Shown in pieces: positions 6,705 to 36,602 of a DNA stretch of 64,000 nt (positions are counted from its first letter, which is position 1; each line of letters opens with the position of its first letter). Origin of the DNA: an uncultured Alphaproteobacteria bacterium (GTDB lineage Bacteria; Pseudomonadota; Alphaproteobacteria; RF32; CAG-239); assembly GCA_944391715.1 (NCBI GenBank), contig CALXUP010000006.1, forward strand, positions 1,895 through 65,894, read 5' to 3'. Below the pieces are notes generated by a model. It had not been told where the DNA came from. It did no database searches and was given only the letters and a program-made list of their open reading frames with translations. The position numbers and the translations under genes are program-made.

Positions 6705-8024
6705 TCATATTTTACGGACAGAAATAATCCAGCCGAAGACAGGTTCTCCGTTTTCATAACGCAAAATTTCTTCTTTGACTTTTTCAAGACGGAATCCGTT
6801 TCTTTGCAAAATATGCGTTATATATCCCCAGCTATGAACAAAGCGACCGCTGGCATGCAGAAAATAATCGCGTTCGTTTATCCGGTTTTGCGATATGGAA
6901 AAAATCGCCCGACCGCCTTTTTTCAGTGCCTGGTTCATTTTGGCAAAAAGGGAATCCAAATTGCCGAAATAAATAAAGACATCGGCAGCGGTGATTAAAT
7001 CCAGGCAGGAGATTTTATCATTCAAAAAATGTAAAATATCACCACAAAATAATTTGGAATAAATATTTTTCTGTTGGGCTTTTTTTAACATTCCGGCAGA
7101 CAAATCGACCCCGTAAATATGCCCTTTGCCGACATATCCCGTCAGATATTCCCCGACCAGTCCGGTGCCGCACCCTAAATCTAAAATTTCCAGGTTTCGA
7201 AAGATTTTCCAGCCGTAAAACCGTTTCAAAAAAGCATTAATATATTCCGGGACACGATACTCCAAATTGCGCAGCGACTCTTCAAAAGAATCCGCAAAAT
7301 AATCAAAAACTTTTTGGATATAAGAGGCATCGGAAATTTTAGCCGAGACATCGTTTTTCAGCGCTGCGACGGCGTATTTGACAATCGGATTTTCCGGAAA
7401 AGAATCCAACCACTGTTCGGCATAGGGCATAACCTTTTCCATTCCGGCTGCCGTTCCGATTTCATAAAGTGCATAGGCGTAATTTATATGCTGGGAATCT
7501 TCTCCGCTGCTGGCTTTTACTGCCCGGAATCCATAATCAAGCGCTTTATCATAATCGCCTGTTTTTTCCGAGCATTGTTCCATATAGTTCAAGGCCCAAA
7601 AGACATCCGGATTGAGGTTGAGCACGCGTTCCAGATATCGTTTGGAATCTTCATACCGTCCCTGTTCAAAATAAACGGCTCCCAGAATCAAGAGCGTATC
7701 AATGCTGTCAGGGTTGGTCTTTAATATCTGGTTGGCTTTGGTAATGGCCGCCGCATAGCGTTTGCAGGCGAAATCAACATTCAAAAGGTTGATATTGACC
7801 ATTTCGGAATTCGGAACCAGTGTCCAGGCATTGCGATAATAACTTTCGGCCTTTTCATAATCTCCGAGCATAAAATAAGCACTGCCGCAATCACACAATA
7901 AATCGGCATTGTTCGGCACGGTCTTTAATCCGCTCAGGGCATAGTGAATCGTGCGCGGATAATCGCCGCTATGATAAGCCTCAAGCGCCAGGGTATGATA
8001 ATCTTTTTGTTCCGTATTTTCCAT
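6705..8024 (-). CDS. TPR-repeat protein fused to class I SAM-dependent methyltransferase domain
   Basis: 439 aa. N-terminal TPR-like repeats (AYHSGDY, GDYEKAESYYRNA, GRYEDSKRYLERVLNLNP). C-terminal Rossmann MTase motif I ILDLGCGTGLVGEYL followed by the acidic DVFIYFG motif II region. Confidence 0.75.
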   Translation of the reverse strand: MENTEQKDYHTLALEAYHSGDYPRTIHYALSGLKTVPNNADLLCDCGSAYFMLGDYEKAESYYRNAWTLVPNSEMVNINLLNVDFACKRYAAAITKANQILKTNPDSIDTLLILGAVYFEQGRYEDSKRYLERVLNLNPDVFWALNYMEQCSEKTGDYDKALDYGFRAVKASSGEDSQHINYAYALYEIGTAAGMEKVMPYAEQWLDSFPENPIVKYAVAALKNDVSAKISDASYIQKVFDYFADSFEESLRNLEYRVPEYINAFLKRFYGWKIFRNLEILDLGCGTGLVGEYLTGYVGKGHIYGVDLSAGMLKKAQQKNIYSKLFCGDILHFLNDKISCLDLITAADVFIYFGNLDSLFAKMNQALKKGGRAIFSISQNRINERDYFLHASGRFVHSWGYITHILQRNGFRLEKVKEEILRYENGEPVFGWIISVRKI

Positions 8025-8071
8025 TTTTCCACACTTGTTTTTATTATAATTTCCCTCTGGTTAAAACTTGA

Positions 8072-8302
8072 TTAATTCCGGCACAGGTCAAGCTGCCTCT
8101 TGAGCTTTTCCAACCGGCCGATCCATTCCCAGGTGTTTTTGAACTTCTCATATTCTGCCTGTTCCAACTCTGTCGCCACCTTGCTGCCTGCCAGCGGGAA
8201 CATCGGGCAGAGTTCAGAGTTGTCCGCGGCGCATGAGCTCAAGCAAAGCATCACGCTCAAGATTAGGCGTTGATGCGATTTTGCGATATTGCGACGAAAC
8301 AT
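8072..8302 (-). CDS. o-spanin (Rz1-like outer-membrane lipoprotein), overlapping the i-spanin gene in another frame
   Basis: 76 aa. Signal peptide MFRRNIAKSHQRLILSVMLCLSSC with lipobox LSSC. Its 5' end overlaps the 3' end of ORF 8214..8420 by ~90 nt in a different frame, the classic Rz/Rz1 arrangement. Confidence 0.5.
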   Translation of the reverse strand: MFRRNIAKSHQRLILSVMLCLSSCAADNSELCPMFPLAGSKVATELEQAEYEKFKNTWEWIGRLEKLKRQLDLCRN

Positions 8303-8420
8303 ATTTTACGACCTCGATTTCTTTGGTTACGGTTTGAACGCGGCAATGACTGCGGCCGAGAAAATAACTCAGCACGCAAGCCGCTATTATGCCGAAAAGG
8401 TTAAAAATATTTCTGCTCAC
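8214..8420 (-). CDS. i-spanin (Rz-like) candidate, GTG start coupled to the upstream gene
   Basis: GTG at 8420-8418 overlaps the TGA of the upstream small gene (GTGA). Product MSRNIFNLFGIIAACVLSYFLGRSH... has an N-terminal TM helix then a charged periplasmic segment. It overlaps the embedded lipoprotein gene. Confidence 0.45.
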   Translation of the reverse strand: MSRNIFNLFGIIAACVLSYFLGRSHCRVQTVTKEIEVVKYVSSQYRKIASTPNLERDALLELMRRGQL

Positions 8421-8554
8421 AGTCCGGCTCCCAGCAATAATAAGAATGCCCGGGCAACGTTTTCGGCATATTGCGGACAGAAAAAAGAAACCGCTGCAAG
8501 CGTCAGGAAAGCGCCCCAAATCATTAGTTTTTTGATATTTTTCAGTCTTTTCAT
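8417..8554 (-). CDS. 45-aa single-TM protein (holin or antiholin candidate), translationally coupled on both sides
   Basis: ATGA overlap with the stop of 8551..8796. Product MKRLKNIKKLMIWGAFLTLAAVSFFCPQYAENVARAFLLLLGAGL. Too short for the ORF track. The first ATG in the ORF-track frame 8214..8519 gives an implausible N-terminus, which supports this frame. Confidence 0.35.
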   Translation of the reverse strand: MKRLKNIKKLMIWGAFLTLAAVSFFCPQYAENVARAFLLLLGAGL

Positions 8555-8796
8555 TTTTTGCCTCTCATTTTATTTTCACGAAAAATCAAATCTAATTTGA
8601 CTTCGATTTTGGTCAGGATTTTGTTTTGTTCGTTAATCGACGTGGTTAAATTCTCCAGGCGGATGTCCTGCTTGTCAAAATTTTGCTCAACCTTGTCGAC
8701 TCTGGTTTCAATATTTCCCTGCCAGCGTCCGATACGGATAAAATTGACAACAACGCCGCACAGTGCCGCCAGTCCGGCAACCAATCCCCAATCCAT
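8551..8796 (-). CDS. phage membrane protein with N-terminal TM helix and coiled-coil region (part of lysis cassette)
   Basis: RBS gaggag + ATG (MDWGLVAGLAALCGVVVNFI...) directly after a terminator hairpin. 81 aa; heptad-like VDKVEQNFDKQDIRLENLTTSINEQNKILTKIEV. Confidence 0.45.
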   Translation of the reverse strand: MDWGLVAGLAALCGVVVNFIRIGRWQGNIETRVDKVEQNFDKQDIRLENLTTSINEQNKILTKIEVKLDLIFRENKMRGKK

Positions 8797-22805: not shown

Positions 22806-23801
22806 TTATTCACCGTCACTATCCGTTGAGGCAGAGGTTTTGTTAAGCAAAACACCCTGCAAAGACGCATTGGACATGGTCATATTACCGGCCCAGCCGA
22901 TAATTTTATAAACGGCATCCTGGTTGATGGCCGCACGCTCTCCGCCGATGACCTTCATATTGCGGTCTTTATGCGGACGCAGATACAGATAATCGGTATT
23001 GAGGAAGTACATCCGGTCTTCCGGACAATGGCCGCCCTGTCCGCCGTCGCAAATTACGTCGGCGCCCTTGAAACGCAGGGTGGCAAAACCGGCATCGGCC
23101 ATTTTCGGGTCGGTATAGCGCTGCAGTGAAGCCATAGATTCTTCAAGCAGGCTGTACAAAGACGTTCCGGTAACAATCAAGTCCGGTTTGTCGGTGCCGC
23201 GGCACAAAGACATATACAATTTGTCCATGGTCGGACGGATAGTATCTACCGTCAGCGCCTCGGAAGCCGTTAAAGACTGGTTGCGCCAGAACTCGTTGCC
23301 GGCCGTTGCGCGGTTGATGCCGCCGACCGTACCGGTAGACGGATTATCCGCGACCAGCAGTTTGAGCCCGCCGATGGCCTTACCGGAAGATTCCGTACCG
23401 TCGCCGTAAATTGCTGCGGACATTTTGTTGCACATGGTTTTAACGGCATTGTCAACGCGTTTGACCATCAGTTCCATGATTTGGGCATCACCGGAGTTGC
23501 GCAGCTGGTCTTCCCCGGAGATTGCAACCGGAACGGCACAGAGTTTGAGGGCATATTCGGCCGCGGTAAACAACTGCTTGGGCGTGAAATTGATTGTATC
23601 ATAGCCGGAATACCAAACCATATCGCCTTCGCCGTATTCCAGTTCTTCCAGAATGCGGCTGCCGCCGGTAATTTCCTTGATATTGTCTTTTTCCTTCAGC
23701 CTTTTCAGCAACGCGTTGTTTTTGGATATGTTATCCGACAAAGTGCCGGTGCGGCATTCCAAGGTGAAAGCCATTACATCATCAACAGGTAAAGCTGTCA
23801 T
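22806..23801 (-). CDS. major capsid protein
   Basis: 331 aa. Lies directly downstream of the scaffold gene. Composition and length fit an HK97-fold major capsid protein of a podovirus-like phage. No diagnostic motif, so called on position and size. Confidence 0.65.
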   Translation of the reverse strand: MTALPVDDVMAFTLECRTGTLSDNISKNNALLKRLKEKDNIKEITGGSRILEELEYGEGDMVWYSGYDTINFTPKQLFTAAEYALKLCAVPVAISGEDQLRNSGDAQIMELMVKRVDNAVKTMCNKMSAAIYGDGTESSGKAIGGLKLLVADNPSTGTVGGINRATAGNEFWRNQSLTASEALTVDTIRPTMDKLYMSLCRGTDKPDLIVTGTSLYSLLEESMASLQRYTDPKMADAGFATLRFKGADVICDGGQGGHCPEDRMYFLNTDYLYLRPHKDRNMKVIGGERAAINQDAVYKIIGWAGNMTMSNASLQGVLLNKTSASTDSDGE

Positions 23802-25095: not shown

Positions 25096-25977
25096 TTATG
25101 GTTCCGCCCGTATTGACCGGCGTTTTTCCCGCCAATACATCAGCGGAAGCGGCAGCAGCATAGCCAGCAGGTTAAACAACGGGGCATAAGGGGCTATTAT
25201 CAGCAGCCAATGTCCGGAAGGAATGCCGTGAGGATAGACAGACAATTCGTAAATCAGGACAAAAGGCACCAGGAGCCAGAAATATGCCAACCATCCGAAC
25301 GAGGCCAGATAACGGCTGAGCAACGGCAGCTGCTGCCGGAATTTAATCAGGAAATCCGGTGTTTTAATAAATATCAGCCAAAACAGCTCCAAAGCAAAAA
25401 TTGTTCGCCAGATGTTTCCCGTCGTTTCCAGCTCCCGGCTGTTAAAACGCAATGCGCCTGCCGTGAGCGGCAAAAAGACAATCCAATAAAGTCCGCCGGA
25501 CAGCAACAAATTGAATATAAAACCTTTGGCATCGTCTGCCGGGTTATCTTTATCGCCCTCGATGATTTCCAGAGGGTCATCCGACCGCCGAAGCAGAAGC
25601 GTTATGCGGGCAAGCAGCAGGACTATCAGCGTTGAACCCCAGCAAACCCCGTATAAATTGTTTTGCAAGATATGCCTTATTTCTTCAGACAGCCGGGGAA
25701 ACCACGGCGTGAACGAAACGGCCAGAACCATGGCAAAAATCAGCGGCAGGCAGCCTTGAAACGCCAGATAACAGGCCAGGCGCGGCCGACGTTGGCGCAG
25801 TTTGTCGAAAGTTTCAGTTTTTAAGCGGAAAATTCGGACGAACCACAGCAGCAAAAGCAAATAAAGCATAATTTCGGAATATATCAGCCAGGCCTGAGTA
25901 CCCAACAGGCCGAAAATCAACCCCAACAACCAGTATATACCGAAGAAAATCAGCGTATTTTTTGAAAAAATATGCAT
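25096..25977 (-). CDS. polytopic inner-membrane protein (moron or superinfection-exclusion candidate)
   Basis: 293 aa with 8 or more hydrophobic segments. Normal GC. Inserted between the portal and scaffold genes. Confidence 0.55.
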   Translation of the reverse strand: MHIFSKNTLIFFGIYWLLGLIFGLLGTQAWLIYSEIMLYLLLLLWFVRIFRLKTETFDKLRQRRPRLACYLAFQGCLPLIFAMVLAVSFTPWFPRLSEEIRHILQNNLYGVCWGSTLIVLLLARITLLLRRSDDPLEIIEGDKDNPADDAKGFIFNLLLSGGLYWIVFLPLTAGALRFNSRELETTGNIWRTIFALELFWLIFIKTPDFLIKFRQQLPLLSRYLASFGWLAYFWLLVPFVLIYELSVYPHGIPSGHWLLIIAPYAPLFNLLAMLLPLPLMYWREKRRSIRAEP

Positions 25978-26160: not shown

Positions 26161-26350
26161 ATTATATTGTTCTTAGATTGTTCTGAGAGACCAGAAAGTG
26201 GTTGGTCACATATAAGAGTAATTTTATATTAGAGGATAATGGAACACGCGCCCATCCAGAGCAATTTAGAAAAGCCTGAATATGACGATATTCTTGTTTT
26301 TCCAGAGCCGGGATATGACGATATCCCGGCTCTGTTTTTTATTCCGTCTC
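26161..26350. repeat. direct repeat R1 flanking the secreted-protein moron (contains terminator-like palindromes)
   Basis: Shares with 27090-27250 the blocks ttgttct(t/c)agattgttctgag, gcgcg..ccatccag.gcaatttagaaaagcc and the perfect palindrome gagccgggatatgacgatatcccggctc. Confidence 0.55.
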
Positions 26351-26995
26351 TATCCAAAAATTTTCAGAAGTGACCGGCGTAAACTCTTTTTTATCCAAAA
26401 AGAAAGTTCTATTATACACTTTCCAATCAGCTCTCATATCATCACCGTCCCAATTATAATGGATATCAAGCAACGGATTTGACAGATGAGTTAAATCAAA
26501 TTGTACGGAAGTTATCATTCTGCCATTATTGAGGCTTACTGCTTCCAGCGCATCAATAATGACTTTGTTATTCATTTTAACGGTCAGGTAAAATTGCTGA
26601 TAAATACCAGCGCTCCCTTCACCGGAAAGAAATTGATATTTATCTCCTATTTTATAATTTTTTTTCGGATTAAGCGCGTTTATCTGTACCTCAAATATCC
26701 TATTATCAATTTTGCAGGAAGCATTATAGCTCTTTTGCCACAATATTTTGTCATTATTATCAAGCTTATAAAGCGCCTGTAAATTATATAATCCGTATTT
26801 TTGAATATAATCCGCAGATTGTGTCAGTAATTTTTCCTGCAGGTCTTCACTGGTACGTGGATGTTCTACCGTCATATACAGGCTTTTTAGTTCCGGCCGG
26901 CACTGAATGCGCAAAAAATCATTCCAGAAATCTGCCTTGGCAGAATTGCAGCATAATATTCCAACAAGTCCTATTAAGACAACATATTTTTTCAT
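26339..26995 (-). CDS. secreted protein (signal peptide), AT-rich moron
   Basis: RBS aaggagag + ATG. MKKYVVLIGLVGILCCNSAKA then a hydrophilic N/K/Y-rich domain of ~195 aa. Confidence 0.55.
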   Translation of the reverse strand: MKKYVVLIGLVGILCCNSAKADFWNDFLRIQCRPELKSLYMTVEHPRTSEDLQEKLLTQSADYIQKYGLYNLQALYKLDNNDKILWQKSYNASCKIDNRIFEVQINALNPKKNYKIGDKYQFLSGEGSAGIYQQFYLTVKMNNKVIIDALEAVSLNNGRMITSVQFDLTHLSNPLLDIHYNWDGDDMRADWKVYNRTFFLDKKEFTPVTSENFWIETE

Positions 26996-27089
26996 GCTCT
27001 CTCCTTTGATAATAATAGTAATTATAATAATTGAACACAATAATTTTACAAGCAATAATTTAATCTTTCGTGCTTGACTTTCTTAAGAC

Positions 27090-27301: not shown

Positions 27302-29221
27302 TCAGAATTCTTTTACAAATCCGGAAGAGATATTTCCGGGGTTGTCAGAGAAAGGCGCCAAAGCGGCATTTTTCTCCGGCATTTTTTCAAGCTGGGCGGT
27401 TTTCAACCTTGCCTGCATTTCCATTTCTTTATTGGTCATATAGAGTTTGTTTTGCTCAACCCACTCTTTTAACTGCAATTCGCGGGCTTTTAAGTTGTTT
27501 TTCTCCCGTTCCAGCTGATATTGCGCCGCGGCTTTTTCCCGCTCCAGAGTCAGAGCCTCGTTCGGCTTTTGCGGCAGAGTTTCGTCCGGCTTATTCAGCT
27601 CCCGTTCAATATCGTTAAAAACTTTTTCAACCGTTGCCGTAAACTGGCGGGATTTCGGCATTGTTACCACAACAGACATTATCATCTGGCGGTACAACGG
27701 CAACAGCAGCGGCTGGCTTGATACGGTTTGAAAAGCTTTTGCAATCAGCTCATTTATGGTGTTTATGCCTTCCAGCGTTTTTGCGGCTTCCTGCGCCTGC
27801 TGAAAAGCAACGTCGGTTTCCACACCCAGCACCATACCGCGCAAGTTGTCGGTTTTTAACAGCCGGACGGCATCTTTGGCCAGCGCCGTATTTTGCCGTT
27901 CTTCCGGCGGCAAAAATCCCAGCAGCGTTTCTTCCGAAAAACAACGGCAGATAATTTCCGCCTTAATCCTGAACACATCCCCGATAAAGCGCTGCATATC
28001 ATTTTGGCGATCCTGATTGCGCAAAGTGCCGAAATTGGTCTTTTCACGGACGGCCGTTGCCGTATCGCCGGGATTGGAGCTACCGCGCATAATATCCGAT
28101 ACGCCGGTTACATCAAAAATCTTGGCAATAATATCCTGTCTTCTGGCCGCCAGTTGTTCCAGAGCCGTTACATACTGCTCAACCGGAACAAAGTCTATAA
28201 TCCCGCGAATGCCGCCATTGTCTTTGAGTTTTTGAAAATCATTGAGCGATACAAGCGTTATGTCCTTATTCAGGATGCTCTTTAACTCGGGAAAAGAATT
28301 GTCATAACAGCCGGAGACTTTCAGCGCTTTCATCGTCAAGCGCATCCGGTTGTTGATGCCGTCCAGCTCAGAAAGCATTTCTTTAATCATCGAATAGTCC
28401 GGCGTCGGGATAATGCTGTTATTGGTCATGGTGGCAAAAACCGGTTTCGGACACGGGAAAAAGCCTTTCAGCCCGAAAGGATCGTTTGCGACTTTTAAAA
28501 ATCCGTTTTTATATTCTTTACAGAGCCAATAGACTTTTCGCGCCGTCTTGTCCCAGACTTCATAAATACAAACGTCTTTTTTGGCATAGTCTTTTTCATC
28601 GGGGCGGATTATAAACGGCGCCAGATGTTCGCCGAACAATTCAACCGCTTCCGTCTTGCCCATATGAATCCTTTTGGCAATCCAGGCTGCGTCTTCCCAA
28701 ATGCCGACTCTATCACAATCGGCAATAAAATCGGCCGGATCGACATAAACGGTTTCTACCCTTTCTCCGACTTTGACCTCAATTTCTTTTTCGGGATTTT
28801 CGCTGTCCGGCAAGCTCCGGAACTCCGGAATATACTGCTCCCAGACAAGCCCCATGCCTGATATCAGAAAATCGTTGCGGGCATATTTTAATACGCTGTC
28901 AAAATCAAATTGTTCCATATTCCAGGCCAGTGCCTTTTCCAAAATCCGGCAAGCCAGTGTTTCTGCCGGATCGGCGTTTTTGTTGCGGCGTTCAATGTAG
29001 GGCTTGGGCTGCTTGAAATATAAAAAGGGTTTTAACGTTTCGACCGTCGACCAAAAGATATTGTAACGGCCGGCACGGGCTATGTCAGAAGTTTGGTCTT
29101 TATAATAATTTCTGGTTTCGGCCACCAGGCGGTGGTATTTTTCATAATGCCGTTCCGCCGCGGACAGCCGCTCTATCCAGGTTTCGACTTCGTTTTTATA
29201 TACGGGGATTATATTATTCAT
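27302..29221 (-). CDS. portal protein
   Basis: 639 aa. Sits immediately after the terminase/GroES-like genes and before the scaffold and capsid genes. Size and acidic-helical C-terminus are typical of podovirus portals. Confidence 0.65.
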   Translation of the reverse strand: MNNIIPVYKNEVETWIERLSAAERHYEKYHRLVAETRNYYKDQTSDIARAGRYNIFWSTVETLKPFLYFKQPKPYIERRNKNADPAETLACRILEKALAWNMEQFDFDSVLKYARNDFLISGMGLVWEQYIPEFRSLPDSENPEKEIEVKVGERVETVYVDPADFIADCDRVGIWEDAAWIAKRIHMGKTEAVELFGEHLAPFIIRPDEKDYAKKDVCIYEVWDKTARKVYWLCKEYKNGFLKVANDPFGLKGFFPCPKPVFATMTNNSIIPTPDYSMIKEMLSELDGINNRMRLTMKALKVSGCYDNSFPELKSILNKDITLVSLNDFQKLKDNGGIRGIIDFVPVEQYVTALEQLAARRQDIIAKIFDVTGVSDIMRGSSNPGDTATAVREKTNFGTLRNQDRQNDMQRFIGDVFRIKAEIICRCFSEETLLGFLPPEERQNTALAKDAVRLLKTDNLRGMVLGVETDVAFQQAQEAAKTLEGINTINELIAKAFQTVSSQPLLLPLYRQMIMSVVVTMPKSRQFTATVEKVFNDIERELNKPDETLPQKPNEALTLEREKAAAQYQLEREKNNLKARELQLKEWVEQNKLYMTNKEMEMQARLKTAQLEKMPEKNAALAPFSDNPGNISSGFVKEF

Positions 29222-29474
29222 CTGTTATTACTCCTAAAATGCTGTTTTCCCGAACGACAACGACATCAGAATCATATGTCGGCAATTCATCAAAAACATG
29301 AAACAAAACTTTGTCTCCCGGTTTGACGCCGGAAACCTGCGGCCCGACGCTTTCGACCGTTCCAATCGTCCGCCGGTGCTCAAAATCGTCGGTCAGGATT
29401 ATTCCGCCGGTTGTTTGTTTTTCGACCGGTTTCAGGCGGATAAAAACCCGGTCCATGACGGCATGTGCAATCAT
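29214..29474 (-). CDS. phage-encoded GroES/Cpn10-like co-chaperonin
   Basis: 86 aa from MIAHAVMDRVFIRLKPVEKQTTGGIILTDDFEHRRTIGTVESVGPQVSGVKPGDKVLFHVFDELPTYDSDVVVVRENSILGVITDE. This aligns with the GroES pattern (DRVLVKR..EEKTAGGIVLP...GxVVAVGPG...VKVGDKVLF......ILxxDIL.VI). RBS ggagaaac. Confidence 0.6.
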   Translation of the reverse strand: MIAHAVMDRVFIRLKPVEKQTTGGIILTDDFEHRRTIGTVESVGPQVSGVKPGDKVLFHVFDELPTYDSDVVVVRENSILGVITDE

Positions 29475-29480
29475 GAAGTT

Positions 29481-29575
29481 TCTCCTTATCTTGTTTGGGG
29501 TTATAAAAAAATCCCGCCGGGAAAATTGCACAGCGGGATAAGCAAAAGTATTGAAGCTATTTTTCGGGAGCTTTA
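29481..29575. repeat. direct repeat D1 (copy of the terminase-downstream terminator+RBS region)
   Basis: ~95 bp nearly identical to 30906-30999: tctccttatcttgtttggggttataaaaaaatcccgccgggaaaattgcacagcgggataagcaaaagtattgaagctattttt. Confidence 0.6.
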
Positions 29576-29599
29576 CATAAACGGCGGACAATAAGCTGT

Positions 29600-30094
29600 T
29601 TAATGCTCATTTTCTGCCAAAATAATCATTATTATAAAGGCCAGCAAAGGCAGGCTTAGTACCAGACTTCCCATTCCGGCATTATATAATATGTTCCAAG
29701 TAACAGAAATTTGATTACTGATTGTTTTCATCATCAAAATGGCATAATAAGCAATCAGCCAAAGCAGATATTCAACGACCATAAAACGGCCGGTTTTTGA
29801 GATTTTCCAGAGTTTCGTTCCGATCTCCCGCAACAGCCAATATAACGGTATTGCCAAAAGGTAAATTCCGAAAACGGCACCGGCCGTTAGGCGGCAAGGC
29901 ACTCCGAGCCAATACCAATTGAACCAGCTTTGAAAGTTTATTTTTCCGACTATATCATCTTGCTGCCATAGGTATATGTCACATTGTGCTCCTTGCGTAT
30001 TATGGTTGATTACAACAGCGCCAATGCAAAAGATCAGACTTAAACAGACCATACTGGCAAAGATATATAAAAATTTTGGCCAAACACGAAACAT
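29600..30094 (-). CDS. 4-TM membrane protein, AT-rich moron
   Basis: 164 aa, very hydrophobic, AT-rich codon usage unlike the surrounding phage genes. Confidence 0.5.
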   Translation of the reverse strand: MFRVWPKFLYIFASMVCLSLIFCIGAVVINHNTQGAQCDIYLWQQDDIVGKINFQSWFNWYWLGVPCRLTAGAVFGIYLLAIPLYWLLREIGTKLWKISKTGRFMVVEYLLWLIAYYAILMMKTISNQISVTWNILYNAGMGSLVLSLPLLAFIIMIILAENEH

Positions 30095-30282: not shown

Positions 30283-30867
30283 ATGTTAAGTGTATTAAAA
30301 GACGCTATTGTTTTATTTCTGAGAAAAATAGACATTTTTATTGTATTTATTACACCGGTATTTTTAATAAATATTTTTCTCTTGCCCTCATCGATAAAAA
30401 TCCTGCTTAATGCCTTTGCTTATTGTATAACGTCTTTAAGTATATATCTTTATCTTTTGCATAACGATCTTTGTTTACGCTTTTTCTCTTTTCGGTTGTT
30501 TTTCTCTTATTTTTTGGCAGATTCTGCCATTGCCGCCGGTTATTTTATTTTGGTTTTTATTATTCAATTAATACCAATTTCCACAATCTGGCAGGTTTTA
30601 TGCGTCTATCTGCTAGGCTTATATTTTCTATGTCGCTTAAGTTTAATTCCGGCCTTGATTGCCGCTCAAAAAACGATATCGATACAAGATATTTTATTCA
30701 AAAACAAAAACAGTTATTTTCAATGGATGTCAGCGGCCACGGTTCTCTATCTTCCGTTTTTTCTGAGCAGGGTATTTATTCCTGAGGGAATTTCTCTTGC
30801 TTTTATAACATCATTACAAACTCCACTTTTATGTTGTTTTTATGTTTGTTATCTTAAAAAGCATTAA
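30283..30867 (+). CDS. polytopic membrane protein, AT-rich moron (divergent from 29600..30094)
   Basis: 194 aa, 5-6 TM, on the strand opposite the phage operon. Shares a 190 bp AT-rich intergenic region with its divergent partner. Confidence 0.5.
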   Translation: MLSVLKDAIVLFLRKIDIFIVFITPVFLINIFLLPSSIKILLNAFAYCITSLSIYLYLLHNDLCLRFFSFRLFFSYFLADSAIAAGYFILVFIIQLIPISTIWQVLCVYLLGLYFLCRLSLIPALIAAQKTISIQDILFKNKNSYFQWMSAATVLYLPFFLSRVFIPEGISLAFITSLQTPLLCCFYVCYLKKH

Positions 30868-30905
30868 TTAATTCCATATACTGTTTCATTTTGTGCATTT
30901 CCTTT

Positions 30906-30999
30906 CTCCTTATCTTGTTTGGGGTTATAAAAAAAATCCCGCCGGGAAATTGCACAGCGGGATAAGCAAAAGTATTGAAGCTATTTTTTGAGGGTTTTA
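30906..30999. repeat. direct repeat D2 (native terminator + RBS region immediately 3' of terL)
   Basis: Contains the hairpin atcccgctg..cggcgggat + T-run and RBS aaggagaaagg. See D1. Confidence 0.6.
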
Positions 31000-34900: not shown

Positions 34901-35536
34901 ATGAACAATATTAAAAATCTGCGCAAAATGCATCATAAAACCGTTACACAGCTTGCCGAGGCCGTTGGCGTTACCCAATCGACCATGACCAAAATCGAGA
35001 ACGGCAATATTTCCCTCAAAAGCGAAATGGCACAAAAAATTGCCGATTTGTTCGGTACAACGCTTGATAATGTCGTAAAATCCGAATTCGGACAGGTTTC
35101 GCCCTATGCATTCAGTCCGGCGGGCGTTTCGATGATTGAAATTATTGACGCGCGGGAATCCGTTGCCGAAAACAGTAATATCCTGACGCCGAAAGTTATC
35201 GGGCATCAGCTAGCAAATATTAATCTTTTTCCTCAACTTAAAAACATATCCCCCGATAAAATAAAGATTTTATCAATTTACGGAGACAGTATGCAGCCGA
35301 CAATCAATGACCAGGACGTTATCTGGGTGGATATCTCGGTTACCTCTCCGGAAAGCGACGGGCTTTATCTTTTCTGCATCCGGCAAGAGCTGCTGGTTAA
35401 GCGCATTCGCTTTGATATTTTTAACAATTCCGCGCTGATTTCTTCCGATAATCCGCTTTATCCGCCGCTGTCAGTCAATAATCCGGATCAGATAAAGGTG
35501 TGTGGAAAAGTAATTGCAGTTACGAAATTTATGTAA
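34901..35536 (+). CDS. cI: CI-like phage repressor (HTH_XRE N-terminus + S24 LexA-type peptidase C-terminus)
   Basis: 211 aa. The HTH region MNNIKNLRKMHHKTVTQLAEAVGVTQSTMTKIENGNISLKSEMAQKIADLFG is HTH_XRE-like. C-terminal S24 domain with a Ser in GDSMQPTI and a Lys in LVKRI. Confidence 0.8.
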   Translation: MNNIKNLRKMHHKTVTQLAEAVGVTQSTMTKIENGNISLKSEMAQKIADLFGTTLDNVVKSEFGQVSPYAFSPAGVSMIEIIDARESVAENSNILTPKVIGHQLANINLFPQLKNISPDKIKILSIYGDSMQPTINDQDVIWVDISVTSPESDGLYLFCIRQELLVKRIRFDIFNNSALISSDNPLYPPLSVNNPDQIKVCGKVIAVTKFM

Positions 35537-36516: not shown

Positions 36517-36602
36517 TGGTAGGGGTAGTCAGACTCGAACTGACACGGCCTGAGGCCACAAGATTTTGAGTCTAGCGCGTCTACCAGTTCCGCCATACCC
36601 CC
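36517..36602 (-). tRNA. tRNA-Leu (anticodon CAA)
   Basis: RNA: GGGGGUA-UG-GCGGAACUGGUAGACGC-G-CUAGA-CUCAAAA-UCUAG-long variable arm UGGGCCUCAGGCCGUG-UCAGUUCGAGUCUGAC-UACCCCU-A-CCA. The cloverleaf folds by eye with a 3-bp D stem and a long variable arm (class II). Anticodon loop CU-CAA-AA. Confidence 0.85.

Follow-up and report, generated by a model that had tools for sequence, protein, structure and literature searches.

A roofless GroES-family co-chaperonin gene immediately upstream of the portal gene in prophages of uncultured gut Alphaproteobacteria

Here we describe a short gene of the Cpn10/GroES family that lies within the head-morphogenesis module of a prophage in an uncultured alphaproteobacterium (GTDB lineage RF32; CAG-239). 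The gene was analyzed in a stretch of 64,000 nucleotides (nt) of contig CALXUP010000006.1 (assembly GCA_944391715.1, positions 1,895 to 65,894), hereafter called the window, and all coordinates are counted from its first letter. The product of 86 amino acids (aa) is clearly a member of the Cpn10/GroES family, its gene is under purifying selection, and it probably acts as a phage-borne co-chaperonin that makes host GroEL serve phage head assembly. A GroES-like co-chaperonin with a role in capsid folding had been proposed for this locus from the letters of the DNA; that interpretation is supported, with corrections concerning the strand, which is minus and had not been given, the intervening genes, the rarity of such genes and a deletion of the roof.

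Family membership was borne out by profile searches and by fold. The protein matched Pfam Cpn10 (PF00166) with E = 1.7e-12 and 47.6 bits, well above the gathering score (21.1), residues 5-83 aligning to positions 4-93 of the 93-position model, and it matched the PHROG profile phrog_3188, 'co-chaperonin GroES', at 7.2e-15. A weak second PHROG match was to PHROG 931, 'head morphogenesis' (1.3e-3). When the PDB was searched with phmmer, the matches were Chlamydomonas Cpn20, Cpn23 and Cpn11, followed by E. coli GroES. An AlphaFold2 model of the monomer, built on 68 homologues, had a mean predicted local distance difference test score (pLDDT) of 85 and a predicted template modelling (TM) score of 0.74, and included the N- and C-terminal strands. 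All 25 significant Foldseek matches in the PDB were Cpn10, GroES, Hsp10 or Cpn20 chains (TM 0.61-0.81), with values of 0.65-0.81 for Thermus Cpn10, human Hsp10 and E. coli GroES; the match to T4 gp31 (1G31; TM 0.67, E = 3e-3) was weaker than those to GroES and Hsp10. Among predicted viral structures, BFVD gave 67 matches at E<=0.001. Most of the matches listed were named 'Co-chaperonin GroES' and came from uncultured viruses, Campylobacter phages and a Yersinia phage, and many models named 'Co-chaperonin GroES [uncultured virus]' reached TM 0.7-0.8. The 'GroES-like' domain of alcohol dehydrogenases was ruled out as the source of the similarity, the ADH_N match covering 25 residues only at 20.2 bits, below the cut-off of 23.5, and the alcohol dehydrogenase matches in the PDB being short and weak. 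Among the closest profile matches outside the family (P0129, P0140, P0171, P0175 and others) are many proteins, 150-315 aa in length, in which Cpn10-like stretches occur two or three times and for which organelle proteins of the Cpn20 type or viral tandem forms are candidate origins.

The part of a co-chaperonin that contacts GroEL is retained, so that neither finding named as refuting the original prediction, a lack of significant Cpn10 similarity or of a mobile loop, was obtained. The mobile loop has the same length as that of E. coli GroES, and G23-G24-I25-I26-L27 align in identical numbering to GroES G23-G24-I25-V26-L27. Glycine followed by a hydrophobic tripeptide is the GroEL-binding core of the GroES mobile loop (Marine et al., 2017; PMC5649160). 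In an alignment of 68 family sequences, G23 is present in 62 of 66 and G24 in 63 of 66, and positions 25-27 are hydrophobic wherever a residue exists (66-68 of the 68 sequences). The residues that flank this core are the most variable of the protein, with entropies of 2-3.4 bits, and residues 21-30, the mobile loop, form the block of lowest confidence in the model (pLDDT 61). A conserved core amid hypervariable flanks is the pattern expected of a short docking motif on a disordered tether. A feature that had gone unnoticed is the loss of the roof hairpin. Opposite GroES G46-V54 there is a 9-aa gap in 21 of 21 aligned family members, and model residues 44-54 make a short, confident turn in place of the hairpin; a second deletion relative to E. 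coli GroES removes 3 aa from the 75-80 loop. The roof β-hairpin is typical of cellular GroES but is no requirement of the family, since T4 gp31, RB49 CocO and several viral clusters do without it. The best-conserved stretch of the family is F58-H59-x-F61-D62-E63-L64-P65 (FHxFDELP), which has no counterpart in E. coli GroES. Its invariance is partly a matter of ascertainment, since the word-based protein search and the DNA pattern scan both selected for the motif; an index-free HMMER search of 1.84 billion representatives returned short relatives of 79-90 aa with FHxFDELP or FKWDDLP.

The gene call is consistent with a protein of this length. The open reading frame (ORF) runs from an ATG at 29474-29472 to a TAA at 29216-29214, and its translation, MIAHAVMDRVFIRLKPVEKQTTGGIILTDDFEHRRTIGTVESVGPQVSGVKPGDKVLFHVFDELPTYDSDVVVVRENSILGVITDE, agrees with the peptide cited in the original prediction. 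The AAGGAG ribosome-binding site upstream of the ATG (Table 1) is unchanged across six orthologous loci. A longer ORF of 125 aa, starting from a TTG at 29591, was rejected because the internal ATG is preceded by a ribosome-binding site, nearly all homologues are shorter than 125 aa and the extension contains a terminator-like hairpin. Nearly all homologues are 79-93 aa long and start at the equivalent methionine; because their lengths and starts agree, and because the TTG extension crosses this hairpin, we take 86 aa as the correct product. The hairpin lies between an inserted 164-aa gene and Cpn10, about 30 nt 5' of the Cpn10 start codon, and probably terminates the inserted gene. A simple terminator scan did not pick it up, probably because its 11-nt loop exceeds the 3-8 nt loop limit of the scan. 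Its stem is retained in four related loci (L021-L024) by differing sequences, CCCGC/GCGGG as against CCCGCCT/AGGCGGG. At its other end, the stop region of Cpn10 overlaps the start of the portal gene by 8 nt, ATGAATAA. The likely ribosome-binding site of the portal gene falls within the codons of Cpn10 residues L80-G81-V82; these residues hardly vary, and may therefore be constrained twice, by the needs of the protein and by those of translation initiation.

Selection and distribution both point to a gene that has been maintained as part of the head module. Against five orthologues with 84-95% protein identity, the ratio of nonsynonymous to synonymous substitution rates (dN/dS) was 0.09-0.13, and all measurable pairs fell within 0.05-0.26. 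In the assembly collection, 203 indexed blocks contain the exact protein, and the six loci displayed share the same flanking host genes. Relatives were found in 59 species-level genomes, all from uncultured gut Alphaproteobacteria or Proteobacteria of humans, mice, ruminants and rabbit, and in 13 IMG/VR contigs, among which the larger ones measure about 30-35 kb. None of the 59 related loci of metagenome-assembled genomes (MAGs) lacks the Cpn10 gene, and in a tblastn survey of these and other metagenome loci the commonest gene order was TerL (terminase large subunit), Cpn10, portal, small ORF, scaffold-like gene and capsid gene. In the distant relatives inspected, Cpn10 adjoins or runs into TerL, the portal gene or both and shows no evident signals of its own; its identity to those relatives (47-74%) is on a par with the values for TerL, portal and capsid. 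The gene order is permuted in a few loci, and Cpn10 stays inside the head module throughout, in agreement with the placement first proposed. In permuted loci from ruminant gut (L059, L061, L062, L069 and L073; L063, L066 and L070) two orders occur, portal...Cpn10-TerL-scaffold-capsid and Cpn10-portal...TerL, and Cpn10 is kept in both.

Within the window, the description of the gene as lying between terminase and portal is correct in that TerL is upstream and the portal gene directly downstream, but two ORFs separate it from TerL (Table 1). Likewise, the claim that it stands directly upstream of the portal, scaffold and capsid genes holds for the portal gene, whereas the scaffold-like and head genes follow only after two further inserts. 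The four inserts, which are hydrophobic or secreted-looking, break up an otherwise tightly packed head module. They are confined to the closest relatives, the head genes being adjacent in distant ones, and look like accessory 'moron' insertions; the 164-aa ORF, for example, is missing from distantly related loci (L008-L015, L025 and following), where Cpn10 abuts TerL.

Table 1. Features of the prophage and its head module in the window
Feature	Coordinates	Strand	Basis or remark
tRNA-Leu(CAA)	36517..36602	minus	Edge of the prophage region; beyond it host epimerase, CysS, SecA
CI/LexA-like repressor	34901..35536	plus	HTH_3 and Peptidase_S24; also in related loci
TerL, 449 aa	30997..32346	minus	Pfam Terminase_3 2.5e-34; PHROG 3717, PHROG 2
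Inserted ORF, 194 aa, hydrophobic	30283..30867	plus	Between TerL and Cpn10; without family match; closest relatives only
Inserted ORF, 164 aa, hydrophobic, membrane-like	29600..30094	minus	Between TerL and Cpn10; without family match
Terminator-like hairpin and T-run	29504..29539 (stems 29539-29531 / 29519-29511, T-run 29510-29504)	minus	RNA fold centroid
Ribosome-binding site AAGGAG	29482..29487 (read 29487->29482)	minus	7 nt 5' of Cpn10 ATG
Cpn10/GroES-family gene, 86 aa	29214..29474	minus	Pfam, PHROG, PDB phmmer, alignment, model, dN/dS
AGGAG, likely portal ribosome-binding site	29231..29235	minus	Within Cpn10 codons L80-G81-V82; 9 nt 5' of portal ATG (29221)
Portal, 639 aa, ~73 kDa	27302..29221	minus	phrog_12082 1.5e-119; tblastn to annotated portals of Mx8, Brucella phages and others
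Further inserted ORF	26339-27055	minus	After portal gene; without family match
Further inserted ORF	25096-25977	minus	After portal gene; without family match
Scaffold-like, 317 aa	23832..24785	minus	Position only, directly 5' of major head gene; no family match
Major head protein, 331 aa, ~36 kDa	22806..23801	minus	phrog_9953 3.2e-99; 46% identity to Mx8 major head region

Taken together with what is known of other phage co-chaperonins, a sequence of events can be envisaged for this system. During lytic growth, Cpn10 would be expressed with the late head genes, its translation probably being coupled to that of the portal. Judging from homology, the product probably forms a GroES-like ring, and the Gly-Gly-Ile-Ile-Leu core of its mobile loop would dock onto host GroEL. 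Host GroES would thereby be replaced or supplemented, and GroEL would fold the major capsid protein and/or the portal. Without the roof hairpin the lid would have an open top, like the lids formed by T4 gp31 and RB49 CocO, and the size limit of the chamber should be relaxed. T4 gp31 offers a precedent, being without roof loops, binding GroEL competitively, enlarging the chamber by ~8% and being essential for folding of the 56-kDa gp23 (PMC6318259).

Several observations weigh against a co-chaperonin of this kind, or at least against the capsid protein as its client, which we infer rather than observe. First, the major head protein has only 331 aa (~36 kDa) and would be well within the ordinary GroEL-GroES cage. 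Second, Mx8 and Bradyrhizobium phage ppBjS10J-1, whose capsid proteins are 45-46% identical and whose portals are homologous, and Brucella phage Tb were found to have no Cpn10 at the head-module position; since they do without it there, the head module is not intrinsically in need of a dedicated co-chaperonin. Candidates for a Cpn10 in these phages were the small ORFs that separate TerL from the portal gene in Brucella phage Tb, an ORF 5' of TerL in ppBjS10J-1 and an ORF after the Mx8 portal; none of them matched Cpn10. Third, in its C-terminal half the mobile loop reads TDDFEHRR, charged and bulky where GroES has TGSAAAKS, and may behave differently from the GroES loop. Finally, a hairpin stands just 5' of the gene, so that transcription of Cpn10 and portal may depend on read-through, antitermination or an unrecognised promoter; a simple promoter and terminator scan gave nothing convincing as a Cpn10-specific promoter.

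Keeping the size of the capsid protein in mind, the 639-aa portal, whose gene is tightly coupled to Cpn10, is as good a candidate for the client. It is therefore conceivable, though on balance unlikely, that the same mechanism operates with another client, namely that the co-chaperonin is dedicated to the ~73-kDa portal, the open, roofless lid admitting a protein that would not fit the closed cage and translational coupling delivering lid and client together. The 8-nt overlap and the portal ribosome-binding site within conserved Cpn10 codons would fit such a dedication, as would the position of Cpn10 immediately 5' of the portal gene in most loci, including some with TerL elsewhere (L063, L066, L070). 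The portal is also larger than T4 gp23, which at ~56 kDa already exceeds the capacity of the GroEL-GroES cage (PMC6318259), and the portal of phage lambda, gpB, requires GroES and GroEL (PMC3224144). Yet adjacency of genes is weak evidence of a client relationship, and it is not universal here: in five loci (L059, L061, L062, L069, L073) the portal gene lies 1.5-2.5 kb 5' of Cpn10, and in all of these but L069 it is TerL that comes after Cpn10. Moreover, the GroES gene of pelagiphage HTVC023P lies downstream of the portal gene and ahead of the capsid gene, and the homologous portals of Mx8 and the Brucella phages are made without a Cpn10 gene. The fuller proposal, in which a translationally coupled, roofless co-chaperonin is reserved for the portal and FHxFDELP forms its client- or portal-facing surface, is more doubtful still. 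If true, a portal-dedicated protein would be the first phage co-chaperonin to serve the portal instead of the capsid protein, and would explain the place of the gene beside the portal gene in dozens of gut prophages.

The strict conservation of FHxFDELP, which exceeds that of the mobile loop and persists in more distant short relatives, could also be read as a sign that the GroES fold has been repurposed, independently of GroEL, as a ring that serves the assembly of the portal or prohead as nucleus or scaffold, or as a minor virion component; the gene is always found among structural genes. We consider this improbable. The glycine and hydrophobic tripeptide within a hypervariable, low-confidence loop are a GroEL-docking signature that is hard to explain otherwise, and a repurposed ring is less likely because it leaves this conserved motif unexplained, while the invariance of FHxFDELP owes something to the searches themselves. 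To our knowledge, every characterised viral Cpn10 homologue (T4 gp31, RB49 CocO) acts through GroEL, which also counts against such a ring. Least likely, indeed hardly credible, is that the gene is a moron captured from host groES that benefits the lysogen (for example by stress tolerance) or perturbs host GroEL and has no assembly role, as its setting among several inserted accessory genes and the hairpin 5' of it might suggest, because this fits poorly with its universal, signal-less placement in the late operon: unlike the inserts it occurs in all 59 MAG loci, its conservation matches that of the core head genes, and with only 32% identity to E. coli GroES it forms a roofless clade of its own, unlike a recent host copy.

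A co-chaperonin working with host GroEL would have close parallels among marine viruses. A survey of marine viromes recovered 1,479 full-length viral GroES sequences; GroES-only viral contigs were prevalent, some probably temperate, and the neighbours of the GroES gene were conserved, a head protein gene coming after them (Marine et al., 2017; PMC5649160). The same study found the glycine and tripeptide motif conserved and described roof-deleted clusters, which were read by analogy with gp31 and CocO. The protein described here resembles these virioplankton systems in being a stand-alone Cpn10 without a viral GroEL, in its place in the head and packaging region with head genes downstream, in retaining the loop core, which is usually kept there, and in its loss of the roof, as in some clusters. 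The hosts of the cultured examples are likewise Alphaproteobacteria, namely those of the podoviruses HTVC023P and HTVC027P (pelagiphages) and CRP-901 and CRP-902 (roseophages), in which GroES lies in the structural region (bioRxiv 10.1101/2019.12.14.876532; PMC10149686). HTVC023P gp36 matches the same phrog_3188 (1e-14, compared with 7e-15 for the 86-aa protein), but the sequence kinship is remote, with an hhalign probability of 19% over 39 columns. The HTVC023P protein is also longer (146 aa), and its gene follows the portal gene instead of preceding it, in the order TerL, gp30, portal (gp31), four small genes, GroES, gp37 (phrog_28737, of unknown function), ... and capsid. The carriers differ as well, being ~30-kb temperate-type gut elements with an Mx8-like head module here and marine lytic phages of 50-60 kb in the known examples.

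Resemblance to the classical phage co-chaperonins is one of function and architecture more than of sequence. Like T4 gp31 (1G31, 2CGT), which works with host GroEL, the protein is phage-encoded, roofless and linked to head morphogenesis. However, gp31 has 111 aa and a mobile loop of 22 residues (PMC6318259), whereas the loop of the 86-aa protein has the length found in GroES; gp31 shares ~14% identity with GroES and is missed by the Cpn10 profile, whereas the 86-aa protein is a plain Cpn10 by sequence; and the client of gp31, gp23, has 56 kDa as compared with 36 kDa for the capsid protein here. Neither the extended loop of ~22 residues nor the profile-escaping sequence that mark gp31-type proteins is therefore found in it, and in sequence and fold its only ties to them are the weak PHROG 931 match and the fold match to 1G31. 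RB49 CocO is described as a GroES-related phage co-chaperonin without the roof hairpin (Ang et al., 2001, as cited in PMC5649160); going by that description the two are alike, while the carrier of CocO is a large lytic T4-like myovirus of enterobacteria. E. coli GroES (1AON chain O) shares the Pfam family, the β-barrel fold (TM 0.65) and the mobile-loop length, and differs by its low identity, the 9-aa and 3-aa segments deleted here, the absence of FHxFDELP, and the setting of the prophage gene in a late operon with no adjoining groEL. The best sequence match of solved structure, Chlamydomonas Cpn20 (7EKQ chain R, 5e-11), is near-gapless and also short at the roof, but is a tandem two-domain eukaryotic organelle protein; its higher score probably reflects the shared absence of a roof rather than close kinship.

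The original prediction had called phage-encoded co-chaperonins uncommon in small temperate podovirus-like prophages. Rarity holds for cultured phages, where a single match at E<=1e-3 was found among 50,697 records and tblastn at E<=10 gave nothing beyond unannotated gut contigs and the GroES genes, all distant, of jumbo phages and others. It does not extend to viruses at large, given the abundance of GroES-only contigs in marine viromes and the 67 matches in BFVD. The kind of element is thus already known, roofless viral GroES genes in head modules having been reported from marine viromes, and no new kind of biology is opened. What is new is this clade, its habitat in alphaproteobacteria of the animal gut, its Mx8-like, ~30-kb temperate-type carrier and its position immediately 5' of the portal gene. 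In the literature searched we found no paper on the clade, which is not proof that none exists. Phage homologues of GroES show how viruses retune a central folding machine of the host, and the clade adds to them a well-defined, strongly conserved form of ~85 aa, roofless and with FHxFDELP, carried by temperate-type elements in uncultured Alphaproteobacteria from the gut of humans, mice and ruminants. The contrast between head modules with the gene and the related modules of Mx8 and the Brucella phages without it provides a handle on which head protein needs a private co-chaperonin and on what the loss of the roof achieves. The analysis also gives a more specific annotation to proteins that are labelled bacterial 'co-chaperone GroES' in some sources and are nameless in most.

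The remainder of the prophage is in keeping with a temperate-type element, as concluded from the presence of the CI/LexA-like repressor. It also holds tail, fibre and lysis genes, and host genes (glgX, glgB, cysS, PBP1A, amiC, secA) flank it on both sides. Homologues of the scaffold-like protein, with 23-39% identity in distant relatives, are encoded just 5' of the capsid gene in most such loci, and a scaffold function is inferred from this position. No match to Cpn60/GroEL was found among the prophage ORFs scanned, and the gene is not arranged as in a groES-groEL operon, its neighbors being the portal gene and the inserted membrane-protein gene. No integrase-sized or recombinase-like ORF was seen in window positions ~8100-36600, the larger ORFs scanned in that region included no recognisable replication module, many small ORFs lying outside the scan, and no exact repeat of >=12 nt, as an attachment site might leave, joins the tRNA-Leu region to the other end of the prophage. 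The prophage may have become defective or domesticated, or it may depend on functions supplied by the host. A further difference concerns a 287-aa gene for a minor head protein (Phage_Mu_F). It is missing from the window (30868-30996) and from L002 and L007, and is present after TerL (7757-8622) in L003-L006, which are otherwise 99-100% identical prophage copies in other samples, indicating a presence/absence polymorphism within one prophage lineage.

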